Of a DNA stretch of 37,021 bases, positions 3,001 to 27,421 are shown in pieces. The DNA is from Clostridia bacterium (GTDB lineage: Bacteria > Bacillota > Clostridia > RGIG6154). The stretch lies in contig JAGARF010000220.1 of NCBI GenBank assembly GCA_017622395.1, positions 1-37,021 of the forward strand, written 5' to 3'. The notes under the pieces are model-generated. The model saw nothing but the letters and a program-made list of their open reading frames with translations. It did not search any database and was not told the DNA's origin. The position numbers and the translations under genes are program-made. Positions within the stretch are counted from its first letter, which is position 1, and every line of letters begins with the position of its first letter.

Positions 3001-4668
3001 TACTCCTTCGTGGATAATAACATTTACAGGTCTGTCCTTTTTAAGATTTTTTACAAAAACTCTTGCTCCGTCAAGAGTTTTAAGAGGGTCCTTTTCACTT
3101 CCGCTCCCATTGTCATTGCCATTTGGTGCAATATGAACCTCATATTTTCCGTCTGCACCTACATTATATTCTGTAAGGGCGGTCAGCTTTTCCATCAGGG
3201 CTTTGTCAAAGTCACCCTTTGATATACCCTGATTTAAAAGAAAATCAATACGCCTTTTAATTCTGTTTAATTCTTCATATATGCTTGCATCAAAATTTTC
3301 GGGCAGGTCTTTTATTTCATTTTCAAGCTTTGCAATATCATCATTATAAGAGGTTGCCTCTGTTTTGCTTGCGGTTACTGCGTGAAGATAAACAGGATAG
3401 TTTACATTATGAATTACACCTATGTAATAATCTCTTTCTTCCTCATAGCCTGCAACATTTTCAAGCTGTTTGCTGTTTATTGGTATAAAGTAGCTGTCTG
3501 AGCAGGATCTTTCCTGCGGCGTTGTTTCTCTTGATGTATATTTGCTGTAAGCTATACCGCCAAGTGCCTTAATTTCGTCAACAGTTGCATAAGACACCTT
3601 AACTCTGTCTATAGCCTTGTCCTCTGTATCAACAGTAACTGCCGTTGCATTGCCTGAATTGGTCTCTTTCCCTATCGTTTTGACAGAGGTGCCATCTTCC
3701 TGGCTTACATAGTAGACCTTTATGCCGTCACCAATTTTAAAATATCTGTCAATATTCGCCTCGTCGGGAGACCAGAGAGTATCAAGACTTTTGGCAAGGG
3801 TATCTTTACCTAAATATTCACTATATATTACCTCTTTGTCCTCAAGAGTTGAATAAAGGGACATTCTGTAACCGTAACAGTAAGGACCTATAATATGGAG
3901 CTGTTCTTTTGAGGTTCCGTCTGCGAAATATATTGTTGTCTTTGCCATTTGAACCTGTCTTGCATACTCTCCTGCAAGGTAGTTAATACCTGACATAAGA
4001 AAGCTTACCTGATTGTATTTTGTGCTTCCGTCAAATCTTATCTCATAAGAATTTGATGAGGATACAATACCTGCATTATAGGTGTTTTCTCCTGTTTTTT
4101 CAGAAATTCCGCTGTATACATACTGAAAATTATTATCTGCAGTGATATAATATTCACCAAATTTATCCGGGAAAGTTTTGGGGTATTTTGCTTTTACGGT
4201 GTCAGTATTATAAAAACCTATAAAAGAGCCGTATGGAACTGTTGCAGGAAAATGTTTATCATTGGTTGGTTGCATAACAATGCCCTTCTTGTATGCAATC
4301 TCATCAACACTTTGAACTGCATCATATTCAAACATATCAACACAGGCAAGAGAATCTTTCTCCTGCCAATTTATTTTTATTCTGTCCTGATAAACAGTGC
4401 TTTTGAGCCAGGTGTTGTGGGGATTTTTATGTTTTGTGAAATATTTTCTATATTTTTCTTTGCCTATATCATTCTCCATAAAACCGTTGGTTTCTATAAG
4501 TGCGTCAATTTCTGCAATTATATCCCCGTTTCCCACCTGATAGCTTTCAGGCAAAGCATTAATAAGAGAAATAACTCTGTCAAGGTCTGTCTGCTCAGCA
4601 GATGCAGGCAGACAAACCATATTTAATACTAATAATAACGCTCCGATTATAGCTACTGTCTTTTTCAT
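1..4668 (-). CDS. Giant secreted right-handed beta-helix (pectin-lyase-fold) protein, 3'-truncated by the window edge; paralog of residues ~820-2496 of the adjacent 2496-aa protein
   Basis: Absent from the ORF track because no stop codon lies in the window. Hand translation of the minus strand from ATG at 4668 (SD aagggag 5 nt upstream, only 11 nt after the stop of the upstream gene) gives MKKTVAIIGALLLVLNMVCLPASA/EQTDLDRVISLINALPESY... The frame (codon first bases = 0 mod 3) stays colinear with the paralog at three checkpoints (positions 1872, 1215, 513) and is still open at base 1 (...ILTVDGVQYDGGAVSSSNKNKI). It contains the same beta-helix motifs as the paralog: EWYLDRDTNIFYYYP, NRFINIG, DTGDCGVIYNGRQ, VYLDDRLSG. 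Confidence 0.85.
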   Translation of the reverse strand, partial: MKKTVAIIGALLLVLNMVCLPASAEQTDLDRVISLINALPESYQVGNGDIIAEIDALIETNGFMENDIGKEKYRKYFTKHKNPHNTWLKSTVYQDRIKINWQEKDSLACVDMFEYDAVQSVDEIAYKKGIVMQPTNDKHFPATVPYGSFIGFYNTDTVKAKYPKTFPDKFGEYYITADNNFQYVYSGISEKTGENTYNAGIVSSSNSYEIRFDGSTKYNQVSFLMSGINYLAGEYARQVQMAKTTIYFADGTSKEQLHIIGPYCYGYRMSLYSTLEDKEVIYSEYLGKDTLAKSLDTLWSPDEANIDRYFKIGDGIKVYYVSQEDGTSVKTIGKETNSGNATAVTVDTEDKAIDRVKVSYATVDEIKALGGIAYSKYTSRETTPQERSCSDSYFIPINSKQLENVAGYEEERDYYIGVIHNVNYPVYLHAVTASKTEATSYNDDIAKLENEIKDLPENFDASIYEELNRIKRRIDFLLNQGISKGDFDKALMEKLTALTEYNVGADGKYEVHIAPNGNDNGSGSEKDPLKTLDGARVFVKNLKKDRPVNVIIHEGVYHLDKTVVFDINDSGKEGFPVTYRADGDAVFTTADTVDFKDFKLVKEGEDSRIPSDLIGKIYKADLDLLGIDAGAMPVYSSTNILGDSFEDISFFVNDKEQMVAQYPNGESNYDTWVSVADTNINSVTIKADALRSKNWQGEKYAYFEGYPSVDYSNERNNLTIDGDLIKFKNPARFDADEKHSRRYKIKHALSELDVPGEWYLDRDTNIFYYYPTEDFDENAEIQFAARKLDTVNVINTDYINFDGLKFDKIRGNAFTAGLSVEELNLYNCEFKNISNRAVQYNGVNVYSSKLWGTANYYDAAENCEVRNNRFINIGASAISFAGGERETLSRGNNVIANNYIYNASNKQRCTPNIQVNGVLNYALNNEVHMGTFHAINHSGNENVIAYNELYNMLRDTGDCGVIYNGRQLATRGTEIAYNYIHDYKQLDERTKDNCVGVYLDDRLSGISIHHNIIFSNGVGEDANGIQNGGGHHNKINYNTIVDADETMTRANRFVEDYRNHADCTAFDEIIKISGVGEKGTKIDIVLDDGKPKTYDLIERNEFFFERYPEMNDSIETLLNPNETVPQFAKKYPIVTRVNPQIQTDIDNGADLTKYRLLSLKSTIGNEYIGNIANRPWRAPENKDVDGNVYDVYREFGSVFEDNIEDASKDTFVNYEERDFRIKGETGGGALDESFDLNTIGLLENGKTSYDLGFELNQVALKNAKNLPAEYKEFNLTYPENNGRVADKKNVTFMWERPVSSDYFTLEIATDPQMNNIVYKNENSYFNFETVTSLPEEFDTFYWRVTARNIARDGSKWQNSDGVNVFHTYDLALVEMPASVQFDIEGDFNVDVFNNEGETHNDKNLLGGTNNTLGMYNLTNLKRLVPADGYYKFGDTVYKFPQVGYDTNSLNAISTKTYKDNCSSAEKQAGNTNYTYTLKETEKSNYDYIRFAMSAAVAVTDYEIEVYYTDSSHQTGLVELCQYYTTYYNNPGYDIILTVDGVQYDGGAVSSSNKNKI

Positions 4669-4679
4669 AATTTCTCCCT

Positions 4680-7600
4680 TTATTTTATAGGTAATTTAGT
4701 TGTATATGGCTTCATTGTGTTAGGGTCTCTTTCCCATAAAAACATAGCTCTGCTTGTCATTCTCTCTGCCTTTTCAGGAATTTCTATGTTAAGTACTCCT
4801 GCATATTTATTGTTTCTTATTGTTGCAGTAACCATAATAACCGTATATTCCCCGTCTATATAGCCTGTTATTATAACATTTGCATTTTTCTCTGCTCCTG
4901 AGTAGTTTTTCATAGAAATTGCCTGCACCTTATTTCCGTTTGCAAGAATTCTTTCGGACTGAACACCTGTTATGGCGAAGATATATTCGTCATTAGTACC
5001 TCCATTGTATACAGTTCCGCTTGTTCTTACAAATTCAATGCTTTTAAGGACTTTAGTATTATCTGTGTCAATAACAGCCTCATATATTTTATTCATAGTA
5101 TACGGAGTTACAGATGATACTTTCTGTCCCTGATAGTTTACGCCGTCAACAGTAAGAATAATATTTGCTGTTTCGTAGCTGTGTGCAGTTGAGTAATACT
5201 GATGAAGTGCAACCGTAAGGGTTTCTGATGAATTATCAGTATAATGAGCAATTATCTGATAATCCTTTGCAGCCAATTTAGAACTCATTGCAAGTTTAAC
5301 CTTATCATAATAGCCCTGTTCTTCGGTTTTAAGTGTGTATGTATAATTACCTTTTTTGCCCAAAAGCTTATCCCAGGAACTAAGGTTATCATAACAAACC
5401 TGTGTACTTACAGCATTATTCTTGCTTGTGTCATAACCAACCTGAGGGAAGCAGAAAGCCGCTCCTCCATATTCATAATATCCGTTCGCAGGAACTATTT
5501 TCTTTAAATTTGTAAGGTTATACATACCAAGAGTACCGCCTGAACTTATACCTCCAAGGAGATTTTTGTCACTGTGAGTTTCTCCTTCATTATTGAATAC
5601 ATCAACATTAAAGTCTGCAGAAATATCAAAAGGTACCGCCGCATCTTCATAAATATCAATACTTACTGAATATAGAGTTTTGATTTTTCTTACTCCGTCA
5701 GAATTTGTCCAGCTGTTTCCATTTCTGCCGATATTTCTTGCAGTAACTCTGAAATAGAATTCATTCTGGCTGTAATCGCTTAAGTCAACATTAAGTCTTG
5801 AGAAGTACGCATTTTCGTTTCTGTAGATAATGTTGCTCATATTTTCATCTGTTGCGATTTCAACTGTGTAATAGTCAGCAGGAGCAACTCTTTCCCATTC
5901 AAGATAAACATTTGATTTATCAGAGCCGTCAACGCAGATTATTTCAAAGCTTCTGTCAAGTCCTGCTTTTGGATTAACTGTATTAATTCTGTTAAGCTCA
6001 AAGTCAAGGTCGTATGAAACAGAGCCATCTGCCTGAATACCGATTTTGTTTAAATCAAAGCTTTCATCAAGTGCTCCGCCATTAGTTTCGCCTTTAATTC
6101 TGAAATCTCTGCCTGCGTAGTTAACAAAGGTATCTGTTGTTGCATTATCAACATTGTCTGTATTTGTGCTTCCGAATTTTTCGTAAACATCATAAATATT
6201 ACCATCTATGTCCTTGCTTTCAGATGCTCTCCAAGGTCTGTTTGCGATATTTCCGATATATTCGTTTCCGATAGTTGATTTTAATGATAAAAGTCTGTAT
6301 TTTGTAAGGTCATTGCCATTTGCAATATCCTGTGAAAGATTTCCGTATCTTCCGCCCTCTGAAAATTCAGGAAGTGTTAAAATAAACGGATATTTATTAA
6401 CAAACTGCGGTACAGTTTCATTTGGATTTATGAGAGTTTCAATTGAGTCATACATTTCTGGATATCTTTCGAAATAGAACTCGTTTTTTGCAAGCATTTT
6501 GTATTTCTTGGTATTTCCGAGGTCAAGAAGCAGTAACACTTCTTCTCCTTCTGAAGCCATACCTGAAATTCTTATAAGCTCGTCAAATGCTGTGCAGTCT
6601 GCATTATTTAAATAATCAGCAATCAATCTGTTTGTTCTTGTCATTGTTTCGTCAGCATCAACAATTGTGTTGTAGTTTATTTTATTGTGCTGACCGCCGC
6701 CGTTCTGGATACCGTTTGCATCATCACCCACACCGTTACTAAAAATTATGTTGTGGTGAATATTTATTCCGCTTAATCTGTCATCAAGATAAACAGCAAC
6801 ACCGTTATCCTTTGTTCTTTCGTCTAAATGCTTATAGTCGTGGATATAGTTGTATGCAATCTCTGTACCTCTTGTTGCAAGCTGTCTGCCGTTGTAGATA
6901 ACACCGCAGTCGCCTGTATCTCTGAGCATATTGTAAAGCTCGTTGTAGGCAATAACATTTTCATTACCTGAATGGTTGATTGCGTGAAAAGTACCCATAT
7001 GTATTTCGTTATTTAATACATAGTTTTTAGCACCTGTAACCTCTATGTCAGGATTACATTTTTGCTTATCACTTGCATTGTATATATAGTTATTTGCAAT
7101 TACATTGTTGCCCTCTGATAATGTTGAACGGTTACCGCCAATAAATTTAATTGCATTGCTACCGATATTTATAAATCTGTTGTTTCTTATTTCGCAGTTT
7201 TTAGCCGCATCTGTGTAGTTTGCAATATTTGCAAGAGTTGATGAACTTGTTTTAGCTGTATATCTTACTGCTATATTTGAAATATTTGTAAACTGACAGT
7301 TGTATATATTAACATTATCCTGAGAAGCTCCTGCGACAAATGCATTTCCTCTTATTTTATCAAACTTAACACCGTCAAGATAGAAATTAGATAAACCTGT
7401 TGTGGTTGTAATTGCATCTAACTTTCTTGTTGCAATCTGAATTTTTGAGCCTTCGTTAAAGTCAGCTGTTGGGTAGTAGTAGAGAATGTTTGTATCTCTG
7501 TCTATATACCATTCGCCCGGGGAGTCAAGCTCATAGAGCATATGCTTAACCTTGTATCTTCTTGAGTGGTTTTCATCAAGCTCAAATCTTGCCTTATTTT

Positions 7601-10600
7601 TAAAGCAGATTAAATCTCCCTCAATTGTTATGTTGTTTCTTTCGTTTGAATAGTCGGGAGAAGGATAGCCTTCAAAGTATGCAAACTTTTCGTTTTGCCA
7701 TTTTTTCGCACGATTTGCATTAACCTTTATTTTTCCTGAATTAATTGAAGTATCTGCAAGGTCAACCCAGGTTTCATAGTTACTTTCGCCGTTTGGATAC
7801 TGTGCAACGCTTTGCTCCTTATCATTTACAAAGAAGGTAACATCCTCGAAGCCGTCACCGCCTATTGCAGTTGAGTAAAACATCGGCATATCGCCTGCAT
7901 AAATTCCGTGGTCTGAAAGGTTAACCTTTAACACCTTTCCTATAACCTTTGGCTGAAGTCTTTCTCCTGCTTCTTTTTCGGTAACCTTTTCAAAGTCGTA
8001 GTAGCTTAAAGTATCTGCAGTTGTAATAACACCGCCCATACCTTTGATTGTAACAGGGTTTTCCTTTGTTCCTGAATCAAAGGCAGTAAGCTCAAGGGTT
8101 TTTGACAGGTTGTGTTCACCTTCAAGAAGAATTATATCTACAGGTCTTGCATTTTTATATGTTCTTGCAATTGCCTTTGCTCTTTCCAAAGTCTTAACAG
8201 GAGAGCCATAGTATCCGTATCCGCTGTCGTCTCCGTCTGGGGAAACATAAATTTCATAATGTCCGCTTTCAGCAACATTGCTTTCAAGGAGATTTTCAAG
8301 CTTTTCAAGTAAAGCACTGTCAAAGCTTGCTTTAGATACACCCTGATTTTCAAGGAAAGCTATTCTGCTTTCAGCATCTTTCATAGCCTTAACTTCATTA
8401 ATATCAAATTCCTCTGAAAGGCCCTTGATTATGTTTTCTATTTCGGCAATATCCTCTGCATATGAACTGCTTTCTGTTCTAACGCCCGTTACGCCGTGAA
8501 GATATACAGGGTATAAAGGATTTATGATAACAGACATATAATAATCTCTGTTTTCTTCATAGCCTGTTATGCCTGCAAGCTGAGATTTGTCTATCGGAAT
8601 ATAATATGTGTTTTTACTTTCTCTCTCAATATCAGTTGTTACGCCGTCGTTAGTTTCCTGTCTGACATATTTATCGTAAGCAACGCCGCCCATTTTCTGA
8701 AGGTCGGAGGCTGTTGCATAAGATACGCTTACTTTTTCAACTGCTTTACCCTCTGCATCAATATTTATAGCTGTTGCTCTGCCAAGTGTTGAGTCTTTTT
8801 TGATTTCCTTTGTAACCTGGTCAACGTTATAATAAAGTCTGATACTGTCAGGTGCAAGCTTGAAATAACTGCTTACATTAGCCTCTTTTGGATACCACAG
8901 TTCATCAAGATTCCTTTTTATTCTTTCGCTTAATAATTCGCTGTATGGCAATGCATCACCATCAAGCATTGAATAAAGTGCCATTCTGTAGCTGTAGGCG
9001 AAATTACCAACAAGAGAAATTTCCTCTTTTGATGTTCCGTCTGCAAAAGAAACCTTTGTTTTTATTGCCTGAAGCTGTCTTGAATACTCACCTGCAAGGA
9101 AGGTAATACCATTTGCAAGAATACTGATTGTGTCATACTTTGTAACTGAGTCAAAGGGGATTTCAAATCCGTATGATGGTGCAATCATACCTGCATTATA
9201 GGTATTTTCGCCAATTGTTTCTGAAATTCCTCTGTAGCCGTATGTAATATTATTGTTTTTGATGTAATATTGGTTATATTTATCAGGGAAGGTGTCAGGG
9301 TTTTTAGTTTTTGCTGAATCTGCAGAATAAAAACCGATAAATTGACCGTGAGGATAGTTACTTGGCAAAACATTGTTTGTAGAGCTCATAACAATACCCT
9401 GCTTGTTTGGAATTTCTTCAAGCTTTGCTGTGCTGAATTCAAATATGTCTGCTGCGTGCATATCGTCCTTTGCTGTCCAGTCAATAACCATTCTGTCCTG
9501 ACTGTTTTTAACATTAAGCCATTCATTATAAACAGCAAGATGGCTTTCATATCTTTCATAATAAGGTGATAAAGATTTAATATACGCCTCTGCTACACCG
9601 TCTTTTATAAGACCTTCTATAAGTCTTTTTGCTTCAGCAGCAGTTTTACCTGTTTCATTTGAATATTTTTCAGGCATATTGTTTAAAATCGTAACAAGCT
9701 CTTTTATAGACTCGCCGTAAGAATCCATAAGCTCTTTTTGTTCATAAAGATATTCAATTTTTTCATAAAGCTTTTCATCAAAGTCTTCTTCGGTAACTAC
9801 ACCGCCTGCTATGATTTCTTTGATTTCTTCTCTTATTGCAAGGATTTCCTCTGCATCTTTTTCAAGATACGCTTCAGGAAGCTTTTCAATTCTTGCTTCA
9901 ATAGCATTGATTTTGTCTGATAAAGAAAAACTTGAAACTGACATACCAAAAAGATCTGTCCTTCCCTGACATGTTCTGCCGAAGTCTATGAATAAATCAT
10001 AGTTGCCGTTATAGCCGTCAAGAGTAACCTTGTGATATGTATTCTGTGTCTGTGATCCAAGTCTTTGATCATGCGGAGCTATTACCTTATCTGAGTCGCC
10101 GGTTCCCATCCAGCTAGAAATTGAAATCTTTTTAATAATTCTTGTGCTATCTATTGGTATTGATGCATCTTCAACATAATAAGTTGCTGTATAGCCATTT
10201 TGAGTAGGTCTATAGACTCTTGTTGTTCCAAGGTTGAATTTTTTAGTGTATATCAGTTTTACACCACTTGCAAGACCTGTAAATACAAAGTCTTCTATTT
10301 TTGCATCTGCTTTTACACCAACTGTGCTCATACCTGCTGTATCAAGAGATACATAGTTTGTTTTTGCATCAACCAACTCCTGCTGAGTATATTCGCTGCC
10401 GTCTGCCTTTTTAGGGAAAGCTCTTACAATTTTTGTACGATCTTCTTCCTTGAGTTTCTCTTCTGTTGTTATTATATAAACAGTTTCAGGGTCACCTGTT
10501 GTATACTCTATTGTTACAGGAATAAGAGTCATATCTCCTTCCTTCTCATATGTACGCATTAAGATATTGAGATAGTCGCCCGAAATATTTATATTGTCGA

Positions 10601-12170
10601 AAACATTGGTATTTATATGTTCATTCGTTGTTCCTGTTCCGTCTTCTTTATACATTCTTCCAAGCTTGATACTGTTATAAACATTGAATATATCAGTTGT
10701 TATATTATCGTCTTCATTAACAACAGGACCCAATTCATAAGTTCCTGTCGCACCAGGCACTTTATAATAGCTTGCAGTATAACTTTCTGCTTCAGTACCT
10801 TTAGCATAAGTTCCGTCCTTCTGCAAAGTTGCTCTTATGCCTGTTCCTGTTATTGTTGAAGAGACTTCATAGTCTGTTAAATGCTCCATATTTGCAACTA
10901 CGTTAGCAACTGTTGGATAAGAGTAGGTAGAATAAGCCCCACCTGAACCTAATTTGTATACATTAAGGAACAACCTTGCTTCGGTATTGTCTACACCATG
11001 TTTGTAAACACCTTTCTCTGTGTTATACTCACCCATAGTGTCTTTAGGGTCGATTCCAACCAATGTATTTCTGAAGTCTTGTCTGTACCCTTCTTTTGGT
11101 GCTACTGCTGTAGAGATTATATCAATTCTTGTTGAAGGGCGTATACCTAAAGCTTCGGCTTTGTTAAGCTCTGCAATCTTATTTGCAAGTGCAGTTTTCT
11201 GTGCTGTTAAAGTACAATTAAATTCTTTTTCAACCGACTCAACATCTATAGATTTAAGTTCTTTAGCTGTTGTTGCTTTTTCAATCGCAGCATCAATTTC
11301 AGCAACAACTTCAGCTAATGTAACCTTTGTTCCCCATGCTGAGAGAACATAAATGCAAAGAGCAGTAGTAGTAGTTGTTGTTGCATCTTTGATTTTTATT
11401 GCAGTAAGGGTCTTTGTGGCATCTGTATTGATTGTAAAGGGAATAAAACCATGTGCTCCGCTGGAGTTATCATTACTATTAGTAAAGTTTTTTAAATAAA
11501 TATTTCCGTTTGAATATTTTTGTGCATCAGTCATTGTCGGAGCAGTAATAGTAATTGTTTTTTCCACTTCTTCATCTGAATAAACAAGTGTAACAGTTGC
11601 ATCTCTGGTCTTGCCTGACATTATTCCCGCAAGAAGACCTATATTTTTGTATCTTCCGTCTGTAACATCGATAACTGCTTCCTGATTTATAGATTTGTAG
11701 CTTTTAATTTTTTCCGAATCTGTAAGAGCAGAGGTATCAACAGCATTTTTACAAACCTTGATTACATTTTCATTTAAATTTAAAAGGTAGTCAACCCCAT
11801 TGATTGTCCAATAAGCGGTATTTTCTGTTACCTCTGTAAGAACAGTAGTGCTCCATCTGCTATGTGTATCGCTGGGTTCTCCCAGCTTGTAGAAAAACAT
11901 ACCGCCGCCGTTTCCGGGGTTTATTACTGCCGTCTGGTCAGTTTTGACTTCACCTGTAGGTGCTGCAACAAAGCCTGCAAAATCTACACCGGGGAGGTAG
12001 TCTATGTATGACAATCTGTTTTCATATATGCCATCACCTGATTCTACAAAAAATCTGCTGTTACCTTTAATTTCAAACCAGACTCTGTTGTCTGTTTCAG
12101 CTGCTGCAGGTAACATAAATATACTGCAAAGCATTGTAACAACTAAAATAAAACTGATAATTTTTCTCAT
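4680..12170 (-). CDS. Giant (2496 aa) secreted modular protein: four unclassified beta-rich modules, helical-hairpin spacers, a central right-handed beta-helix putative glycan-active catalytic core, an FN3-like module and a C-terminal beta-sandwich
   Basis: Complete ORF in the track. Signal peptide MRKIISFILVVTMLCSIFMLPAAA/ETD. SD gagggag upstream of the ATG. The beta-helix region (about residues 1303-1850, nt 6621-8264) starts YEIYVSPDGDDSGYGYYGSPVKTLERAKAIA and carries repeated N-x-I/V rungs plus DTGDCGVIYNGR and VAVYLDDRLSG acidic motifs. The FN3-like motif is YLEWERVAPADYYTVEIATDENMSNII. Confidence 0.9.
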   Translation of the reverse strand: MRKIISFILVVTMLCSIFMLPAAAETDNRVWFEIKGNSRFFVESGDGIYENRLSYIDYLPGVDFAGFVAAPTGEVKTDQTAVINPGNGGGMFFYKLGEPSDTHSRWSTTVLTEVTENTAYWTINGVDYLLNLNENVIKVCKNAVDTSALTDSEKIKSYKSINQEAVIDVTDGRYKNIGLLAGIMSGKTRDATVTLVYSDEEVEKTITITAPTMTDAQKYSNGNIYLKNFTNSNDNSSGAHGFIPFTINTDATKTLTAIKIKDATTTTTTALCIYVLSAWGTKVTLAEVVAEIDAAIEKATTAKELKSIDVESVEKEFNCTLTAQKTALANKIAELNKAEALGIRPSTRIDIISTAVAPKEGYRQDFRNTLVGIDPKDTMGEYNTEKGVYKHGVDNTEARLFLNVYKLGSGGAYSTYSYPTVANVVANMEHLTDYEVSSTITGTGIRATLQKDGTYAKGTEAESYTASYYKVPGATGTYELGPVVNEDDNITTDIFNVYNSIKLGRMYKEDGTGTTNEHINTNVFDNINISGDYLNILMRTYEKEGDMTLIPVTIEYTTGDPETVYIITTEEKLKEEDRTKIVRAFPKKADGSEYTQQELVDAKTNYVSLDTAGMSTVGVKADAKIEDFVFTGLASGVKLIYTKKFNLGTTRVYRPTQNGYTATYYVEDASIPIDSTRIIKKISISSWMGTGDSDKVIAPHDQRLGSQTQNTYHKVTLDGYNGNYDLFIDFGRTCQGRTDLFGMSVSSFSLSDKINAIEARIEKLPEAYLEKDAEEILAIREEIKEIIAGGVVTEEDFDEKLYEKIEYLYEQKELMDSYGESIKELVTILNNMPEKYSNETGKTAAEAKRLIEGLIKDGVAEAYIKSLSPYYERYESHLAVYNEWLNVKNSQDRMVIDWTAKDDMHAADIFEFSTAKLEEIPNKQGIVMSSTNNVLPSNYPHGQFIGFYSADSAKTKNPDTFPDKYNQYYIKNNNITYGYRGISETIGENTYNAGMIAPSYGFEIPFDSVTKYDTISILANGITFLAGEYSRQLQAIKTKVSFADGTSKEEISLVGNFAYSYRMALYSMLDGDALPYSELLSERIKRNLDELWYPKEANVSSYFKLAPDSIRLYYNVDQVTKEIKKDSTLGRATAINIDAEGKAVEKVSVSYATASDLQKMGGVAYDKYVRQETNDGVTTDIERESKNTYYIPIDKSQLAGITGYEENRDYYMSVIINPLYPVYLHGVTGVRTESSSYAEDIAEIENIIKGLSEEFDINEVKAMKDAESRIAFLENQGVSKASFDSALLEKLENLLESNVAESGHYEIYVSPDGDDSGYGYYGSPVKTLERAKAIARTYKNARPVDIILLEGEHNLSKTLELTAFDSGTKENPVTIKGMGGVITTADTLSYYDFEKVTEKEAGERLQPKVIGKVLKVNLSDHGIYAGDMPMFYSTAIGGDGFEDVTFFVNDKEQSVAQYPNGESNYETWVDLADTSINSGKIKVNANRAKKWQNEKFAYFEGYPSPDYSNERNNITIEGDLICFKNKARFELDENHSRRYKVKHMLYELDSPGEWYIDRDTNILYYYPTADFNEGSKIQIATRKLDAITTTTGLSNFYLDGVKFDKIRGNAFVAGASQDNVNIYNCQFTNISNIAVRYTAKTSSSTLANIANYTDAAKNCEIRNNRFINIGSNAIKFIGGNRSTLSEGNNVIANNYIYNASDKQKCNPDIEVTGAKNYVLNNEIHMGTFHAINHSGNENVIAYNELYNMLRDTGDCGVIYNGRQLATRGTEIAYNYIHDYKHLDERTKDNGVAVYLDDRLSGINIHHNIIFSNGVGDDANGIQNGGGQHNKINYNTIVDADETMTRTNRLIADYLNNADCTAFDELIRISGMASEGEEVLLLLDLGNTKKYKMLAKNEFYFERYPEMYDSIETLINPNETVPQFVNKYPFILTLPEFSEGGRYGNLSQDIANGNDLTKYRLLSLKSTIGNEYIGNIANRPWRASESKDIDGNIYDVYEKFGSTNTDNVDNATTDTFVNYAGRDFRIKGETNGGALDESFDLNKIGIQADGSVSYDLDFELNRINTVNPKAGLDRSFEIICVDGSDKSNVYLEWERVAPADYYTVEIATDENMSNIIYRNENAYFSRLNVDLSDYSQNEFYFRVTARNIGRNGNSWTNSDGVRKIKTLYSVSIDIYEDAAVPFDISADFNVDVFNNEGETHSDKNLLGGISSGGTLGMYNLTNLKKIVPANGYYEYGGAAFCFPQVGYDTSKNNAVSTQVCYDNLSSWDKLLGKKGNYTYTLKTEEQGYYDKVKLAMSSKLAAKDYQIIAHYTDNSSETLTVALHQYYSTAHSYETANIILTVDGVNYQGQKVSSVTPYTMNKIYEAVIDTDNTKVLKSIEFVRTSGTVYNGGTNDEYIFAITGVQSERILANGNKVQAISMKNYSGAEKNANVIITGYIDGEYTVIMVTATIRNNKYAGVLNIEIPEKAERMTSRAMFLWERDPNTMKPYTTKLPIK

Positions 12171-12251
12171 AATTTCTCCCTCTTTTATTTATTTTACTAA
12201 AAATTTTATTTACAAAACACAGGTGTTTTTCTCCATTTTATACCTAATTTT

Positions 12252-12280
12252 ATTATATCATACATTACTGCAATAATCAA
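12252..12280 (-). promoter_or_regulatory. Sigma-A type promoter for the 2496-aa gene
   Basis: The minus strand reads TTGATT, a 17-nt spacer, then TATAAT with an extended -10 (TGATATAAT). The -35 is at 12275-12280 and the -10 at 12252-12257. It lies just downstream of the terminator of the preceding operon and about 80 nt upstream of the ATG at 12170. Confidence 0.6.
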
Positions 12281-12315
12281 TAACAAATTTCCTGCAATTT
12301 TACTGAATTTTTGCA

Positions 12316-12352
12316 CAAAAAAACAACCCCTGTGCGTGGTCACGCACAGGGG
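12316..12352 (-). terminator. Rho-independent terminator ending the SLH/1274-aa operon
   Basis: Perfect 12-bp GC-rich stem cccctgtgcgtg/cacgcacagggg (12327-12338 pairs with 12341-12352). On the minus strand it is followed by ttgttttttt. It sits 13 nt after the stop at 12365. Confidence 0.85.
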
Positions 12353-12364
12353 TTTTATGTTTAT

Positions 12365-15300
12365 TTATTCAAAATAATATGTGTTGTATACTTTTCTGCA
12401 GTTTGTAAGTGAGTCAAGGATAAGACATTCAATTGTCTGTCCATCCTGAAGGTCAAATGCAACTGCCTGTGAAATTGTTTCGCCTGATGCAAGAGTTTTA
12501 TTTACAAGGTATTTTGCAACCATAGAATTGTTTGCATCATATACGGCAATTATTGCTGTAACCTCCTGATCTTTTGTCATATTATTTGTTAATACAACAG
12601 TACCTGCAGCATTTTCCATTGTGATTTCTGCATCAACAGCAGGCTTTGAATCATATGCTTTCTTTGTATCTGTTAAGATAGTCTTGCCTGATACGCCTGC
12701 AACCTCTCTTGAAATTGTAAGGTTATATTTTCTGTCATAGTCATAGTCGTTTTTAATAACAACTCTAACTTCTCTGATTTCACCATCTGTTTCAACAGGA
12801 ATTAATTCATAGTTTGTGAAAGCAACTTCTTTTGGAACAGTACCTTCAACGATTGTTTCTGTAACTGCAAAAAATTCCTTTGTAATTGATGAAGGTGCAA
12901 CAGGACCTGTGAATTTAACTGTAAAGGTCATATTATCCAGGTCTGTGTATGCTGTAACACTTTCAATTGCAACGAAAATGTTCTTGTTTTCTGCAACTGT
13001 CTGAGCGAACTCTGAATTATATAAAACTTCTTTTTCGTCAAGAGAGTTCATAATGTTTGTGCAGCCCTCAAGGATTGCTCTTACATTAGCCTCTGCTGTG
13101 TTTTCAAGGTTTTCAATACTTTCTGTAAGCACCTTGTTAAGAAGGACAGAGTTTGCAACCTGGCCTGTCAAAGCAAACAAATGAGCATCATTTGTTCTGA
13201 ATATGAATTCAATCTTATCAAGAATTTTCTTATCATCAGGAGTTAAGATATGGTCACCAACTGCAATGCTGTATCCGCCGCCTGGTGAACTATCATACTG
13301 AGGCATATATGCTCTGTAATATCTTAAGCTTACTTTACCGTCATTATTTAAAACCTTATAGTATGTTGGGTTGTCCTTGTAAAGCTCAGACATTTCTCTG
13401 TAGCCTGCAATCTTCTTAACATTTGCTTCTTCTGATGATGAGCCGTCTGCATAAATATACTTAACAGTTAAACCTGCACCTTCTGTATCAGCCCACATTG
13501 CTGCGTGAAGCTTTGAGTATGCATTGTTTGGAACATCAACTGTAACTGTTGTAGAAACTGCTGATGCCACAGAGTTATTTTCCTTGTCAATCTTACCATC
13601 TACAGTTGTTTTAATCTTACCAAACTGATAAGGAACGCCGTTAATTGTTGTTTTGTTTGTTGTAAGGTCAACTCCAAGCTTTGAAACAAAGTCCTCTTCA
13701 ACCGCAGCCATATTGCCTGTTAGGGATGCCACAATTGTCCACCTTTTTTCAGCAGGAAGCTGATTTGCAAAATGGTTGTTTTCATCCTTAACGTAGTTTC
13801 CGTCCGGACCTCTGAACTGAGCCTGATATCTTTCAAGACTGTCAACTACATCCTTATTATAAGGAAGGTCAAAGGTTGTATAGCTTGCCTTTTCATCTCT
13901 CTGTGCAATAAGGCTTTCAAACTTTGCTATTGTCTGTGAAGGAATAACACCGCCGTCATTTTGAATAGCAGTAATTGCCTTCTCAATTTCAACTATTTCA
14001 TTATCAATTGCAGCTGTGTAAAGCTCAGGGAGAGCTTTGATCTTTTCAACTACGATATCAATATCTCTCTGCAAGAGGTTAGAATCTGCTGCCTCGTATA
14101 AAGCATCAAATATTTCGATATTTGCAAGACCTTTAGCTGTACCGCCGTTTTCATAGAATTTATCAATATCAGCTTTGATTTCAACAATTGTTTCAAGCTG
14201 TTCCTTGTCATACTCGATATCAAGACCGTCAATAGCTGTATCTATCTTTGCACCTTCTTCAGCAAGAGAAGCAAGTTTGTCGATTTTGTCAACAACCGCC
14301 TTGTCAACTACACCTGTACCTGCTGATGGGTTTTCTTTTAAGCCGTCTGCAAGAGCTTTTGCAGCAACAACTTCGTCATACATTTCGTATAAGTATTCAT
14401 TTCCCCAGCCTTTTGCCTTGTCTTCAAGACCTGAAGACATAACATAAACATCATAAACCTTTGCAAATTTCGCCATTAAGTCTTCATTAAATTCTGAAGA
14501 TAAAATGCCTGAACTTAAAAGTGCATCATATTCTGCCTTAATGCCTTCAACCTCTGCTCTCATTGATGAGATATACTTAAATGCCATATTTGTGATTTTG
14601 CCTTCAACTGATGCAATCTGGGCAGCCTTGATTTCTGCTTCGGCTGAAGCATATAAATCATTAAGCTTTGTTAATAAGGCGTCTTCAAAATCAGTATCTT
14701 CAACACCCTCTGTCTTTAAAGCCTCAAGTGCATTTTTAATTTCAGCAATTTCCATTTTCTGTGTTGAATTGTATGTATCATCTAAAGCATCAATTCTTGC
14801 CTCTAAAGCGTCAATTTTCTCCTGAAGTGACTGACCTACAACTGTTACAGCAAATACAGCCTGTTCATCCTTACAAAGTCTGCCAAGCTTTGCAAAGTAG
14901 TAGTAATCATCAGATGCACCTTCAATTGTTACAGGGATATATGCACAATTGCCGTCAATAACAGCTATTGCATTTCCCATTTCGTCTTTCCAATTTTTAG
15001 CAGCCTCAGTATCTCTTTCCATCTGAACTGATTTAACCTTTTGGTTTACAGGAATATTAATATAATCCACATAACCGAGAGGGCAGTATCTTCTTGGGTT
15101 TGTTCCGCCTGCTGATGGGCTTCTTGCAATGTTAAAGTCACCAAAGAGAACTGAATCACCTTTGATAATTAAATCATCATTTGGGAATTTAACATCATCA
15201 AGTGTGATAGCTTTACCGATAATCTCTTCTGAATTTGATTCAGAAAGATATGAATAAACATAGCCTGCTTCTCTCTTGTATTCATTTGTTTCATGTTCAG

Positions 15301-16189
15301 CATTTCTTTCTATTATTGAGGCTTCCTTAATCTTTTCGCCTGTAGAAATATCTGCCGTTTTTGGAATATAGATAATTGTTTTTGCAAGTCTGTCCCCGTC
15401 ACCTTCGTTGTTTGATGCACCGCCTGTTCTTGCAACATGGTCATCTCTTGAAATATTAGTGTCAACTGAAAGAGCATATTTTGTAAGAGTTGTTCCGTCT
15501 TCATAGGTGATTTTTACAGGGAATAAACCTGCATAACCGCCACCGTTAACAACCCATGTGTTCATAAGAATGTTAACAGATGTAGGACTATCAATAGTTC
15601 CCTGTGCGTTGTATGCACCAACAGTGTTTGGAAGCTTATGTGCATTCAAAACACCTGTTGTTGTATGATGTGCGCCTGTGCCGCCGATAGGACCCATTTT
15701 GAAGTTGACACCATTGTGGTTGTAAAGGAAATTCATAGTTCCGTCTGTTTCTGTAGACTGGAGCTTGAAGTTTGAAACTCCGTTTGCTTTGAATTTGTAT
15801 GTTGTTTCTTTAACTGTTGTTAAATCTGATGTAAGGTATTTGCCTTTATAGCTTCCGTCTGCATTGCCAATAATTGTATCAATAAGAAATACATTACCGC
15901 TAAGGTTCTTTGAAGATGAAGTATAGCTTGCAACATTCCAGCTGTTTGTTATAGGTGTTCCGTCAGGAAGCTTGCTTTGGAATATTGTATGGCTATTATC
16001 TGACGGGAAATAATGGAACAGTTCTTCAACAGTTGCAAAAGCATCGTTTGTGAAAGGAATATCAAGATATTCCATTTTAGGGGTGTTTAAAAATTCTTCT
16101 CTTGTTTGCTCAGCTGAAACAGGAGCAACGAAAGTTGTTATGCTTAAAAGCATAGCAGCTGTTAAAATTAAAGATATAATTTTTTTCAT
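12365..16189 (-). CDS. Secreted 1274-aa modular protein with no recognisable catalytic domain: two unclassified beta-rich modules, a five-unit helical-hairpin array and a C-terminal beta-sandwich
   Basis: Complete ORF. Signal peptide MKKIISLILTAAMLLSITTFVAPVSA/EQT. SD aaaggag 9 nt upstream. Shares module motifs (INGVPYQFG, VKYIYADGSSSE, ILDKIEFIF, AHLFALTGQ) and the hairpin spacer with the 2496-aa protein. Confidence 0.9.
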   Translation of the reverse strand: MKKIISLILTAAMLLSITTFVAPVSAEQTREEFLNTPKMEYLDIPFTNDAFATVEELFHYFPSDNSHTIFQSKLPDGTPITNSWNVASYTSSSKNLSGNVFLIDTIIGNADGSYKGKYLTSDLTTVKETTYKFKANGVSNFKLQSTETDGTMNFLYNHNGVNFKMGPIGGTGAHHTTTGVLNAHKLPNTVGAYNAQGTIDSPTSVNILMNTWVVNGGGYAGLFPVKITYEDGTTLTKYALSVDTNISRDDHVARTGGASNNEGDGDRLAKTIIYIPKTADISTGEKIKEASIIERNAEHETNEYKREAGYVYSYLSESNSEEIIGKAITLDDVKFPNDDLIIKGDSVLFGDFNIARSPSAGGTNPRRYCPLGYVDYINIPVNQKVKSVQMERDTEAAKNWKDEMGNAIAVIDGNCAYIPVTIEGASDDYYYFAKLGRLCKDEQAVFAVTVVGQSLQEKIDALEARIDALDDTYNSTQKMEIAEIKNALEALKTEGVEDTDFEDALLTKLNDLYASAEAEIKAAQIASVEGKITNMAFKYISSMRAEVEGIKAEYDALLSSGILSSEFNEDLMAKFAKVYDVYVMSSGLEDKAKGWGNEYLYEMYDEVVAAKALADGLKENPSAGTGVVDKAVVDKIDKLASLAEEGAKIDTAIDGLDIEYDKEQLETIVEIKADIDKFYENGGTAKGLANIEIFDALYEAADSNLLQRDIDIVVEKIKALPELYTAAIDNEIVEIEKAITAIQNDGGVIPSQTIAKFESLIAQRDEKASYTTFDLPYNKDVVDSLERYQAQFRGPDGNYVKDENNHFANQLPAEKRWTIVASLTGNMAAVEEDFVSKLGVDLTTNKTTINGVPYQFGKIKTTVDGKIDKENNSVASAVSTTVTVDVPNNAYSKLHAAMWADTEGAGLTVKYIYADGSSSEEANVKKIAGYREMSELYKDNPTYYKVLNNDGKVSLRYYRAYMPQYDSSPGGGYSIAVGDHILTPDDKKILDKIEFIFRTNDAHLFALTGQVANSVLLNKVLTESIENLENTAEANVRAILEGCTNIMNSLDEKEVLYNSEFAQTVAENKNIFVAIESVTAYTDLDNMTFTVKFTGPVAPSSITKEFFAVTETIVEGTVPKEVAFTNYELIPVETDGEIREVRVVIKNDYDYDRKYNLTISREVAGVSGKTILTDTKKAYDSKPAVDAEITMENAAGTVVLTNNMTKDQEVTAIIAVYDANNSMVAKYLVNKTLASGETISQAVAFDLQDGQTIECLILDSLTNCRKVYNTYYFE

Positions 16190-16206: not shown

Positions 16207-18015
16207 TCAGTTTGCAAGACCTGAAGTCTTTAAGTAGTTGTAAATGATAACTGCAGCCTGTGCTCTTGTGCAGCTGTCTGTTGGTCTGAAGGTATTATCT
16301 TCAAAGCCGTTGATAATCTTTAATTCTGCAAGAACATTTACAGGCTCAATTGCATAATCTGCAATTTCGTTCTTATCTGTAAATAATGCAGGTGTCATTA
16401 TTTCTTTAACAGGCATTGTTCTGTAAATCATAGCAGCAATATCCTGTCTTGTAACAGCCTGACCGAAACCGAACATATTTTCGCCGATGCCAGAAATTAC
16501 GCCTGCTTTAACAGCCTTTGCGATGAAAGTCTTAGCCCAGCTTGCAGAGTCTACATCAGCAAAAGCCACTTCAGCTTCTTCTGTAAGACCTACAGCAATT
16601 GAAATCATCTTAACGATTTCTTCTCTTGTAACTGTGCCGTTTGGATCAAACACTCTGTTTGCCTTACCATTTACAATACCCTTTGTGTAAAGGTATTCAA
16701 TAGCATCTATAGCCCACTGTGTCTGTGCTATATCGTCGAATTTATATTTATATGTATTAGCATGATTCTGGTCGTTCTGATTTAACGCGTTTTGATTTTC
16801 TACTACAGGAGGGATAACAGCATTTCCGCCTGCTGAAACACCGGGGGCAACTCCGCCGCCACCGCCGCCGCCACCGCCGCCGGTAACGCCGCTGCCTGAG
16901 CCTGCCTCTGACTCTGCCTGGGCAAAGCCTGCAATAAGACCGTTAAGACCTTCAATAGTTGTTATAGCTGAGCCGTAGCCTGCTAAGTTCTTTGCAACAT
17001 ATTCAGTAATTGAGCCTGTAACACCTGCTTTTGTTTTGTTAGCTGATGTAAAGAGTGCGTCAATATGTGAATAACCTGAATAGCTTGTTGAGTCTTTTTG
17101 TGTTGATTTATTTGCACCGTTGCAGATAACTGCCTCGATAAATGCATCGTAAAGTTCCTCTTCGTCTGCAAAAGCCTTGTTTAAAAGTGCATTCTGAACC
17201 TGAGCTTTTCCTTCTGAAGATAATGTGTATTTTTTACCGTCCTTTTCTGAACCTTCTGCGTAATATTTATAAACTGAAATGCCGTATTTAGCATCAATTC
17301 CTGATACCTTTAAAGCAGAATCATACTTAAATGTACCGTCTGTGTTAAAGCTGTATGCTGCAGCCTTGCCCTGATTTAAAAGCTCAAGAGCTGCAACCTT
17401 TTTGATGATGAGCTGAAGTGCTGCACCGTTCTGAGCATCTGTTCCTGCAAATTTGCCCTCATCATCAGCAGCTCTTACTGCTGCTAAAAGCTTAGATGCA
17501 TAAGTCTCCATATCAAGACCAATTTCAGTTGAAACCAATGGCTCGTATTTGTCTATAGAGAAGGTTGCTAAAACTGATGGGTCTGTAACCTTTGCTGTAA
17601 ATGTAACAAGGTCATTAGCTCTTGCAGCTGTAAGTATAGCCTGAGTGTCTGTTGTAAGGGAAGCAACTGCAAAATTAAATGTCTGTTTTTCAACACCGTC
17701 TGCATAAACCTTGTACTGACCCTCTGTAGCTGAATAGAGTGTAAATTTATAAATAAATTCACCGTTTGCGTCGATTTTAACTTCTCTTACATTCTGCACT
17801 GCAGAGCCTGCAAGGTCTGTATCTGTCTGAGTTTTACCCGGATTTGTAACGAGTAAGATAAATGAGCTGTTTGCCGCGCCTGTACCTGTGATTGTAACAG
17901 ACTTTGTTGAAAGGTCAACATCGGCAGGGTTTACAGTAACAGCTGATGCGGCTGAAACTGTTAATGTGGCAAGCACCATTAAAGATGCAAGTAAAACTGA
18001 AATAAACTTTTTCAT
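16207..18015 (-). CDS. SLH-domain cell-wall-anchored surface protein (602 aa) with an Ig-like N-terminal module, poly-Gly linker and three C-terminal SLH repeats
   Basis: Signal peptide MKKFISVLLASLMVLATLTVSAASA. The linker is GSGSGVTGGGGGGGGGGVAPG. Three SLH-type repeats occupy residues ~425-598 (nt 16222-16743): FDDIAQTQWAIDAIEYLYTKGIVNG...TREE, FADVDSASWAKTFIAKAVKAGVISG...TRQD, FTDKNEIADYAIEPVNVLAELKIINGF...TRAQAA. Confidence 0.9.
   Translation of the reverse strand: MKKFISVLLASLMVLATLTVSAASAVTVNPADVDLSTKSVTITGTGAANSSFILLVTNPGKTQTDTDLAGSAVQNVREVKIDANGEFIYKFTLYSATEGQYKVYADGVEKQTFNFAVASLTTDTQAILTAARANDLVTFTAKVTDPSVLATFSIDKYEPLVSTEIGLDMETYASKLLAAVRAADDEGKFAGTDAQNGAALQLIIKKVAALELLNQGKAAAYSFNTDGTFKYDSALKVSGIDAKYGISVYKYYAEGSEKDGKKYTLSSEGKAQVQNALLNKAFADEEELYDAFIEAVICNGANKSTQKDSTSYSGYSHIDALFTSANKTKAGVTGSITEYVAKNLAGYGSAITTIEGLNGLIAGFAQAESEAGSGSGVTGGGGGGGGGGVAPGVSAGGNAVIPPVVENQNALNQNDQNHANTYKYKFDDIAQTQWAIDAIEYLYTKGIVNGKANRVFDPNGTVTREEIVKMISIAVGLTEEAEVAFADVDSASWAKTFIAKAVKAGVISGIGENMFGFGQAVTRQDIAAMIYRTMPVKEIMTPALFTDKNEIADYAIEPVNVLAELKIINGFEDNTFRPTDSCTRAQAAVIIYNYLKTSGLAN
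16852..16882 (-). repeat. GCC/ACC trinucleotide tract encoding a Gly10 linker
   Basis: The plus strand reads tccgccgccaccgccgccgccaccgccgccg, a nearly pure GC triplet repeat in an AT-rich genome. It is in frame within the 602-aa SLH gene (residues 379-388). Confidence 0.8.
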
Positions 18016-18036
18016 AATTCTCCGATTCTCCTTTCT

Positions 18037-21000: not shown

Positions 21001-21069
21001 AACGAACATACTGAGTACCATAGCACACGCAAGGATAACCGAGATAATTTTCTTCATTGAATTCATCAT
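18037..21069 (-). CDS. SLH-domain surface (S-layer-like) protein (1010 aa) with three N-terminal SLH repeats and a long beta-rich C-terminal region
   Basis: Signal peptide MMNSMKKIISVILACAMVLSMFVMVYA/EDT. SD aaggagag 5 nt upstream of the first ATG. SLH-type repeats span residues ~36-235 (nt ~20365-20964): YAEEIGVIKAMGIINGDETGAFNADANLTRAEFAQVL, FADVPTTHWAFGVISQITDIGYMIG...VNQVNKVLVKILG, YLASTLKVLKGV...ITRGELAKMLYNM. Confidence 0.9.
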   Translation of the reverse strand: MMNSMKKIISVILACAMVLSMFVMVYAEDTGATTQAVKYAEEIGVIKAMGIINGDETGAFNADANLTRAEFAQVLTVLLKINHGDVAKENAWYYKFEIPEDLDNVLLTPSTGLVTGEETASSAPDTAEKVQKFADVPTTHWAFGVISQITDIGYMIGTSETEFSPEDPVTVNQVNKVLVKILGYEQFANINGGYPAGFNYLASTLKVLKGVNNFGENPITRGELAKMLYNMFDVNMIAAVSVTDTGVATYTTSDKTFLYDVLGVYKYEGKVTDNGTTALLGQSEIDDDEIKIGNVVFELADTANYVKGFIGRVVEFYVVEDEETDKMMVIYAALAEDGEEFVIEIDKFENLTYGKLEYIDENEEEDYLDIASVPTIIFNGSKVEGVTKEEIKEFSNGTVTALKSGSSDIYDTIVIEGFVSMYTKSVIASEKIISNGLVEPVKDEYANLDLSEKNNKNTEITIIKNGANATFGDIKSGMVIDVAKSKNAIKILISDKKETMTVGGTSIDKESESYIYSSDGEEYLLAKKLVTSETVKIPDIGTETTAYFNTFGEIVYFDSSSTTLEGLGILINGFEDGRGLKKDCKVRIFLETGAFADYILAEKVAFTNENDAYSKEEALDMIAILQNYKDTLITFTTTEEGLISEVSIPLAISNQDTRANGRLSVFYSADDEQYLQQGFGGKAFTRNSPKIFFVSTGDITDEYSKYQIKTTSVLLNDMKYGNVTAYNTDPKSYNAKYIVMKNDKLTNYKPSIRTMPFVIVESVKHALNIDGEPIVRIQGLELSATSTGKQVNAVYESSTGAFNNMKAFVNNGNNTPSYSVKEGDIINLHQVNGNVIYASLVYRQSLNYTNNPRKMGGALAGQVSGLFDEIKGGNPYIVNESGGTQVKDPETGAVVNAPGEGTPSKVTSGSVRMFDCFPVRINEGLITVTNMDLSDSSKVYKETDENQVTNTWVLPTIITVVDIKGEKASAREGSTTDIKTYEDYGASCSRLFIHDYQGTIYKLVVINVDR

Positions 21070-26073: not shown

Positions 26074-26235
26074 TTTCTTCACCTTTCTGTAAATTTTAAT
26101 GTGTCTGTCCATAATTTCATATTACAAAAAATAAAAATTATTTACTTTTTTAAAATTGCAGAAAATCCCTTAAACCCCTGTAATTACTTGATTTTTCGGG
26201 AATCCTCTGCATAATATTCCATTATGGTTTTATAC

Positions 26236-26433: not shown

Positions 26434-26459
26434 TAAAAAAAGCCCTACAGGGCTTTTTT
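26434..26459 (-). terminator. A/T-flanked short hairpin overlapping the stop codon of the mutarotase-like gene; bidirectional-type terminator
   Basis: The sequence is aaaaaaagccctacagggctttttt. A GCCC/GGGC core is extended by A:T pairs, and a T-run follows on the minus strand. The stop codon (26445-26447) lies inside the stem. Confidence 0.5.
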
Positions 26460-27377: not shown

Positions 27378-27392
27378 TTTATTCTTCCTCTC

Positions 27393-27421
27393 TTGTTTTT
27401 TTATTAATTTTATTATATAAT
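27393..27421 (+). promoter_or_regulatory. Sigma-A promoter for the phosphofructokinase operon
   Basis: The plus strand reads TTGTTT (27393-27398), a 17-nt spacer, then TATAAT (27416-27421), 40 nt upstream of the ATG at 27461. Its -10 overlaps the -10 of the divergent promoter. Confidence 0.5.

Follow-up and report, generated by a model that had tools for sequence, protein, structure and literature searches.

The locus and its repeated modules

Three neighboring genes on the minus strand of a contig from an uncultured, gut-type Clostridia bacterium (assembly GCA_017622395.1, contig JAGARF010000220.1) encode very large proteins in which a divergent, beta-rich module recurs, and that module is the subject of this account. 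The window, meaning the whole stretch of DNA that was analyzed, is 37,021 nucleotides long. The three genes are referred to as A, B and C:

4680-12170, minus strand: gene A, 2496 aa
12365-16189, minus strand: gene B, 1274 aa
1-4668, minus strand: gene C, 1556 aa visible, with the C-terminus beyond the window edge

Gene C is a paralog of residues 822-2353 of gene A (56% identity by BLAST). A typical Sec signal peptide can be seen in the sequence at the N-terminus of all three products, which are predicted to be secreted.

The original prediction held that at least eight segments of these proteins are copies of a single module, of low overall identity and of variable length, marked by five short motifs in a constant order: an opening motif, a turn, a strand of the form h-x-h-x-Y-x-D-G-S/T-x-x-E, a penultimate strand and a terminal hydrophobic strand (motifs 1-5; in the patterns given here, x is any residue and h a hydrophobic one). 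The eight segments are listed below, together with the group (S1 or S2, as defined in the next section) to which each belongs:

11325-12092, minus strand: A1, gene A residues 27-282, group S1, with motifs 2-5 at residues 123-280
9921-11138, minus strand: A2, gene A residues 345-750, group S2, with insertions; merged with the B1 family by jackhmmer
8466-9494, minus strand: A3, gene A residues 893-1235, group S2, belonging to a 17-member family
4953-5639, minus strand: A4, gene A residues 2178-2406, group S1, the shortest copy and the nearest to the unnamed glycosidase-associated domain described below
14831-16078, minus strand: B1, gene B residues 38-453, group S2, with an insertion of ~100 aa
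13154-13879, minus strand: B2, gene B residues 771-1012, group S1
3352-4383, minus strand: C3, gene C residues 96-439, group S2, counterpart of A3 (phmmer of A3 against gene C, E 1.8e-102)
1-537, minus strand: C4, gene C residues 1378-1556, group S1, counterpart of A4 (phmmer of A4 against gene C, E 4.3e-59), cut by the window edge

A full-length version of C4 is visible in P0005, one of the homologous proteins collected in this work (P numbers). Profile comparison revealed no further copy in the neighboring genes D, E, F and G.

Homology among the copies

All 23 of the motif strings quoted in the original prediction are present at the places given for them, and in each segment they stand in numerical order, 1 to 5. 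Overall identity is indeed low. Plain BLAST and phmmer comparisons between segments returned nothing significant beyond the A-C paralogy, weak collinear matches between A2 and B1, and a spacer unit that the proteins share. Since direct comparison was non-significant, homologs were collected through word-indexed searches (three), an exhaustive profile search and a genome scan; the 76 proteins so obtained formed the local set on which jackhmmer built the family profiles. HMMER separates five families (A1; A2 with B1; A3 with C3; A4 with C4; and B2), which iterative jackhmmer never joined, even on this enriched local set.

Comparison of the family profiles with hhalign places A2 with B1 at a probability of 100%, A1 with B2 at 93.9% (E 1.6e-7), A2 with A3 at 92.5% (E 4.9e-7), A4 with B2 at 88.3% (E 2.9e-6), and A3 with B1 at 47.7%. 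Scores for other pairs were 31.6 (B1-B2), 30.1 (A2-B2), 26.9 (A1-A4) and 26.9 (A1-B1), while A3-A4 (18.7) and A2-A4 (20.7) scored no higher than controls. The highest profile score among the copies is 57.7, as against a control maximum of 21.9-23.4: thirty reversed-profile controls had a mean of 13.8 (standard deviation 2.75) and a maximum of 21.9, and unrelated sequences (genes D, E, F and G, the beta-helix, the spacers and the C-terminal immunoglobulin (Ig)-like parts) reached at most 23.4. When the families are merged into two groups, S1 (B2, A1 and A4) and S2 (B1/A2 and A3), these align with a score of 43.1 (74.8%, E 2.6e-5), compared with 13.6-14.9 for reversed controls. With C3 and C4 placed as members of S2 and S1, respectively, S1 comprises A1, A4, B2 and C4, and S2 comprises A2, A3, B1 and C3.

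The profile alignments run collinearly over the full length and recover each of the five motifs. Made blind to the motifs, they superpose 41 of the 57 motif pairs that could be tested, with motif 3 co-aligned in each of the 15 profile pairs, and the motif residues are conserved inside each family. Module length varies through insertions, and the order of strands is preserved. Since the profile scores stand far above the controls, the motifs co-align and the motif residues are conserved within families, the observation is confirmed, including its motif order: on these profile comparisons, the eight segments in three genes are copies of one divergent module family.

Alignment of A4 with B2 alone by MAFFT misaligned the N-terminus, and the motifs came into register only once both families were added; the two-sequence alignment was discarded.

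Comparison with named domain families

The module had been said to match no named carbohydrate-binding module (CBM), Ig or FN3 family, and this holds. Pfam-A and NCBIfam give nothing on the modules, and nothing above noise, when run on the whole of proteins A and B, and they yield scattered noise only, at E-values up to 10, on 16 members of the B1 family and 14 members of the A4/B2 families. A confident match of the whole module to a Pfam family was looked for in particular, and Pfam-A gives none. The modules fall in no CBM family tested. Nor was there an Ig-like or FN3 match on the modules; a weak Big_5 match in gene B (residues 1086-1172) lies outside them.

Jelly-roll CBMs, such as CBM11 (1V0A), CBM32 (2W1Q) and the C-terminal CBM of AlgX (4KNC), resemble the modules in being beta-sandwich accessories on polysaccharide-active enzymes, as is likewise presumed here. 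They differ in that their Foldseek matches are weak (E 0.03-1.4, TM-scores of 0.08-0.29) and in that they show no sequence similarity to the modules. The best CBM matches, at E-values no lower than 0.09 and TM-scores no higher than 0.29, include CBM11 (E 0.09, TM-scores of 0.21/0.29) and CBM32 (E 0.95).

Rib, YPDG, MiiA-motif and cadherin-like repeats have a V-x-V-x-Y-x-D-G-S/T hairpin in common with the modules. Membership of the modules in the Rib, YPDG or cadherin-like families was rejected, as the match is confined to this motif 3 hairpin of ~20-40 residues (e.g., in P0053, P0056 and P0057).

Two other candidates were set aside as spurious. These were a match to CBP33A in a family-profile search of PDB sequences (E 0.41), and matches to the designed "Cake" propellers, in which the score is summed over a 20-residue repeat and the E-value per stretch is ~900.

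Predicted structures

AlphaFold2 models cover two of the eight copies, A4 and B1, each computed from a separate alignment. The model of the short copy A4, computed from an alignment of 14 A4- and B2-family sequences, has a mean predicted local distance difference test score (pLDDT) of 59.8 and a predicted template modeling score (pTM) of 0.67, with a well-predicted core of strands. The model of B1, based on 16 sequences of its separate family, reaches a pLDDT of 79.9 and a pTM of 0.84. In the B1 model, motif 2 forms a hairpin (model residues 122-140), motif 3 a second hairpin (191-214), motif 4 a strand (356-361) and motif 5 the last strand (414-423), and residues 215-315 make up an insertion that is partly helical and partly of low confidence.

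Searched by Foldseek against 350,542 PDB chains, the A4 model has a single outstanding match, the AziU3/U2 complex (7wuw, 8gs1), at E 5.7e-7 with a probability of 1.00 and TM-scores of 0.49 (query) and 0.59 (target); the runner-up has an E-value of 0.017. AziU3/U2 is also the best match of the B1 model, at E 1.2e-3 with a probability of 1.00 and a TM-score of 0.60 by target, the next being at E 0.15. Both the AziU2 and AziU3 chains match both models. Other matches are to generic jelly rolls (picornavirus capsid proteins, CBM11, the AlgX CBM and a Cry toxin) with TM-scores below 0.3, and a search of viral folds in BFVD found nothing. That two independent models converge on one rare PDB entry provides the best support for a fold common to S1 and S2, and the modules are thus predicted to have the fold of AziU3/U2 (7WUW/8GS1).

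An unnamed glycosidase-associated domain and AziU2

The order of the motifs resembles that of a domain at the C-termini of glycosidases, and a query peptide for tblastn was written on this lead. The peptide matched 28 plasmid records from Streptomyces, Frondihabitans, Burkholderia, Mesorhizobium and other hosts, 26 of them with a single matching place. The matches fall in proteins annotated as SGNH/GDSL hydrolases, GH92, GH3 and ricin-lectin proteins (WP_210984626.1, WP_168720760.1 and WP_331764581.1 are examples). The domain is widespread in such actinobacterial and proteobacterial proteins, is ~180-200 aa long and lies at or near the C-terminus in those records whose annotation or translation was examined. 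One record has two matching places; otherwise a single match was seen per GH92, GH3 or SGNH protein examined. The matched stretch lies outside every Pfam match in all three proteins that were scanned whole, and nine isolated domains gave nothing in Pfam or NCBIfam other than short Y-x-D-G motif models.

When the nine domains are combined into a profile, it finds AziU2 (7wuw_A, 8gs1_A) with an E-value of 7e-26 over positions 6-189 of 191. The combined A4 and B2 profile, in turn, matches the unnamed domain by hhalign at 94.65% (E 6.5e-8) over 178 of 192 columns, or essentially the whole domain. The suggestion that the module lacks known relatives therefore fails. Merged S1 matches the unnamed domain plus AziU2 at 92.5% (E 5e-7; reversed control score 11.3), B2 alone matches the same target at 87.4% (E 3.7e-6), and A4 alone matches the unnamed domain at 79.5%. 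For A1 alone, the probability is 14.6-25.4%, at scores of 28-31 as against a reversed control of 15. No direct similarity of the window's modules to AziU2 was found at the level of HMMER. The links thus close on three sides: the models lead to AziU3/U2 by structure, S1 leads to the unnamed domain by profile, and the unnamed domain leads to AziU2 by sequence. On this whole-domain profile similarity, the S1 copies are members of an AziU2/AziU3-like superfamily.

It follows from these links that the fold is one already solved, and that the five motifs are the signature of an AziU2-like superfamily. The AziU2 motifs, in the same order as those of the window, are IDIDGLLNNRA, VAGIPFTWA, IWAHYDDGHADPLRV, VARSLRLP and HVFALTL, and their counterparts in A4 are PFDISADFNVDVF, GGAAFCFPQVG, IIAHYTDNSSETLTV, VLKSIEFV and YIFAITG.

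The unnamed domain resembles the modules of the window in its five motifs, in its glycoside hydrolase and SGNH partners, and in its absence from Pfam-A and NCBIfam. It differs from them in lacking large insertions and a following spacer unit, and in having been found here in high-GC soil bacteria. It also conserves G-D-F-D-G and S-D-W, which are lacking or altered in the window's copies (QYY in A4). A free-standing version, a 188-aa domain encoded between two hypothetical proteins, occurs on a plasmid of Mesorhizobium huakuii (WP_183465510.1; locus L016, 871-1437) and recalls the stand-alone AziU2/AziU3 pair.

AziU2 and AziU3 (Azi28) of Streptomyces sahachiroi, solved in PDB entries 7WUW, 7WUX and 8GS1, which provide the fold match for the A4 and B1 models, are free-standing proteins of ~200-230 aa that form a complex, according to the PDB titles, and make the aziridine ring in azinomycin biosynthesis. 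In contrast to these two proteins, which we take to be cytoplasmic, the copies of the window sit inside secreted proteins of 1300-2500 aa, with two to four in each chain and insertions of 100-200 aa in some of them. The AziU3/U2 complex was called "a novel fold" in the AlphaFold 3 paper (PMC11168924), and a review describes it as an aziridine synthase whose mechanism is sulfate displacement (PMC12559475). What was known already is the fold, through one structurally characterized relative; what is different here is the location, the copy number, the insertions and the partners. Taken together, the copies appear to form a new branch of the AziU2-like superfamily, one that is extracellular, multi-copy and insertion-bearing.

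Homologs and module content

Close relatives of the B1-type module are rare. An exhaustive search of 1.84 billion representative proteins with the B1-family profile returned 40 at E ≤0.001 and 13 at ≤1e-30. Several of the 40 are fragments, and P0053, P0056 and P0057 match the motif 3 hairpin only. The full-length matches are multi-modular proteins in which S1 and S2 modules accompany GDSL/SGNH or DUF4886 domains. A1 has homologs that are N-terminal in P0021-23, P0028, P0029 and P0034 and C-terminal in P0032. Among the members of the A3 family are C3 and, in the SGNH proteins P0020-23, P0025 and P0036, the third module. The first homology search, made with A4 only and a word index, found a single protein, and relatives came from the later searches. 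Two scans of metagenome contigs and a tblastn search of plasmids with B2 found nothing.

Module content varies between orthologs, a pattern that fits accessory modules. For example, P0002 shares 94% identity with the part of A that starts at residue 820, and in both P0002 and P0003 the A1 and A2 modules of gene A are replaced by a single N-terminal module. Likewise, one 706-aa ortholog of B has B1 and lacks B2. The partners vary as well: the modules accompany a GH141-like beta-helix in the window and SGNH/GDSL or DUF4886 domains in homologs, and the unnamed domain accompanies GH92, GH3, SGNH and ricin-lectin domains.

Spacer units, other regions and genomic setting

The remainder of the module-bearing proteins includes the following regions:

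13880-14830, minus strand: spacer units (~60 aa each) that separate B1 from B2, gene B residues 454-770, recognized by BLAST sharing
9495-9920, minus strand: two spacer units after A2, gene A residues 751-892
8271-8465, minus strand: spacer unit after A3, gene A residues 1236-1300
5676-8270, minus strand: GH141-like right-handed beta-helix region, gene A residues 1301-2165, recognized by PDB sequence search and a weak Pfam match

Further spacer-unit sites lie at 11139-11324 of the window and at gene C residues 25-95 and 440-505. This conserved unit of ~60 aa follows most modules and stands in tandem between B1 and B2, with the pattern I-x-x-L-x-x-x-I-x-x-L-P-E-x-Y ... G-h-x-x-x-D-F-D ... L. 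It is common to positions behind modules (A 712-813 against B 417-517, E 2e-11 by BLAST) and also aligns A 1225-1301 with B 443-519 and B 443-512 with C 429-498. The units have no Pfam match, FIVAR included; judged by composition only, they look helical and may be three-helix. A match to MvaT at A 778-849 was dismissed as noise.

The central beta-helix of A is its sole sequence link to any solved structure in a direct PDB search. Residues 1535-1761 match the parallel beta-helix protein 9rx2 (E 1.9e-4) and the GH141 enzyme BT_1002, 5mqp (E 0.022), and the Pfam model GH141_M scores 17.6 bits on gene A, under its cut-off of 27. This region is presumed to be the catalytic part that the modules accompany.

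Two other stretches are unnamed in Pfam. One is an FN3-like stretch (window 5640-5900; A residues ~2090-2177 and F residues ~760-850) with the pattern Y-L-E-W-E-R-V ... Y-Y-T-V-E-I-A-T-D ... F-Y-F-R-V-T-A-R-N; in A it lies between the beta-helix and A4, and C and F likewise have it behind the beta-helix. The other, a small beta domain at the C-terminus (window 4683-4952; A residues 2407-2496), ends in K-x-F-h-W-x-x-x-x-x-h-x-P and occurs in many homologs, including P0025-P0029 and P0036, at the end or just before the esterase domain.

Upstream of A-C on the same strand are genes D and E (window 16207-21069), which encode two SLH-domain proteins, and gene F (21169-26112), which encodes a third GH141-like beta-helix protein with two C-terminal Cu_amine_oxidN1 domains; residues 28-856 of F share 27% identity with A over about 880 aa. 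The nearest genomes are metagenome-assembled genomes (MAGs) of uncultured Clostridia or "Eubacteriales" with syntenic loci, and the gene order F-E-D-B-A(-C) is kept in the related MAG loci L001 and L002. An identical gene B is present in one ENA metagenome assembly. In that assembly the gene after B (locus L005, 7020-8984; P0031) encodes 654 aa that equal A up to residue ~620 and then diverge, the result of a frameshift or assembly error, or of a strain difference.

On the plus strand, from about 27000 to 35590, lie pfk, an unnamed 263-aa open reading frame, dnaA, dnaN, recF and gyrB. The open reading frames at 26445-27440 (minus, 331 aa) and 28678-29469 (plus, 263 aa) are without a Pfam match. 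GC and AT skews switch sign near 27-28 kb of the window. From this change of sign and the genes that follow it, the cluster can be placed next to the chromosomal replication origin; the locus is a surface-protein cluster beside the replication origin of a low-GC Firmicute.

Proposed ligand binding and its alternatives

The explanation favored here, and taken as a whole a probable one, is that the segments are AziU2-like accessory modules with a role in ligand binding. One ancient, strongly diverged beta-sandwich module very likely gave rise to all eight segments. Its core of ~180-230 residues starts with an N-terminal strand (h-D-h-x-x-N-x-D-h-F), followed by an N-G-h-x-F/Y-x-h-G hairpin, a Y-x-K-h-x-h-A-M strand and an h-x-h-x-Y-x-D-G-S/T hairpin, and ends with a K-x-h-x-S-h-x-h strand and a terminal h-F-A-h-T-G strand. 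S1 copies stay near this core, while S2 copies carry insertions of 100-200 residues. The modules would serve as non-catalytic accessory domains that bind ligands, most probably glycans, and so may position or target the catalytic domain on a polysaccharide. Several divergent copies per chain could provide multivalent or multi-specific binding, with the ~60-aa spacer units holding the modules apart. The two parts of this explanation differ in strength: that the modules form a divergent AziU2-like family is very likely, while a binding function, suggested by context (signal peptides, the catalytic partners, the SLH proteins encoded nearby and the variable module content), is put forward tentatively and at slightly less than even confidence.

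Several observations weigh against this explanation. Under default hhalign settings, the A4+B2 profile aligns with the B1 profile at motif 3 only (2.4%), and motif 3 itself (V-x-Y-x-D-G-S/T) is a generic hairpin of surface proteins, which alone draws the Rib, YPDG and cadherin-like matches. The A4 model is of low confidence (pLDDT <50 for 97 of 243 residues), and the fold matches combine moderate TM-scores with large root-mean-square deviations (rmsd; 7.6-10.6 Å). Direct comparison of S2 with the unnamed domain and AziU2 is weak (4.9%, score 21.8), so that S2 is joined to the superfamily solely via S1 (74.8%) and Foldseek. As to function, the sole characterized relative, AziU3/U2, is an enzyme and not a lectin.

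A bolder extension of the ligand-binding explanation, in which the AziU2/AziU3 fold, hitherto described only for an aziridine-forming enzyme pair, would be the core of a large, unrecognized, CBM-like family of extracellular ligand-binding domains on carbohydrate-active enzymes and S1/S2 pairs, within one chain or between chains, would form composite glycan pockets, is conceivable but unlikely. Distinctly unlikely, too, is an arrangement in which S1 and S2 pair as AziU2 does with AziU3, the resulting pseudo-heterodimers either having a functional pocket at their interface or acting mainly as a scaffold or assembly device for a surface enzyme complex. AziU2 and AziU3 crystallize as a complex, given PDB titles such as "AziU3/U2" and "AziU2-U3 complex", and, as noted above, each matches both models. 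S1 and S2 are also equal in number in each protein of the window (two and two in A, one and one in B, one and one in C), and the rigid-looking spacer units between copies and the SLH proteins encoded next door would suit a scaffold. This balance fails in homologs, however: P0020 has three S2 modules and no S1, P0021-23 have one S1 and two S2, and the 706-aa ortholog of B has B1 only. The unnamed domain is, moreover, single in the GH92, GH3 and SGNH proteins examined, bar the one record with two matching places.

That the modules are themselves catalytic, as AziU-like lyases or transferases with sulfated or otherwise activated sugars as substrates, appears very improbable. The only characterized relative is the aziridine synthase AziU3/U2 (PMC12559475), and since that complex is an enzyme, the fold can house a small-molecule pocket. 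Yet several very divergent copies in one polypeptide, beside recognized catalytic domains, make up the pattern of accessory modules. Furthermore, the alignment of the B1 family (16 sequences) is invariant at G, Y, G and K only, and that of the unnamed domain at G, Q, G, G and W only, residues that look structural rather than like a common polar active site.

Least probable of all, to the point of being remote, is that the similarity reflects convergence or chance among generic strand-turn motifs and Foldseek matches from mediocre models: the non-significant pairwise searches, the generic motif 3, the pairs at control level (A3-A4 and A2-A4) and the large rmsd values would agree with it, but it is made unlikely by the controls and the three-sided link, in that profile scores rise to 57.7 over control maxima of 21.9-23.4 in full-length, collinear alignments with all five motifs, two independent models select the same rare entry from among all the PDB chains searched, and that entry is independently tied in by sequence via the unnamed glycosidase-associated domain.

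Significance

Recognition of the AziU2-like modules makes more than 3000 otherwise unannotated residues in three very large surface proteins accessible to structural and evolutionary analysis, though it reveals no new mechanism by itself. A domain that is missing from Pfam and NCBIfam is seen to recur on GH92, GH3, GH141-like and SGNH enzymes across distant phyla and is tied to the "novel fold" of AziU3/U2, and the family could be built now by domain curators. For work on carbohydrate-active enzymes, it represents a candidate new family of binding modules with a solved relative, from which one could test if glycan-binding modules of the AziU2-like fold are widespread.

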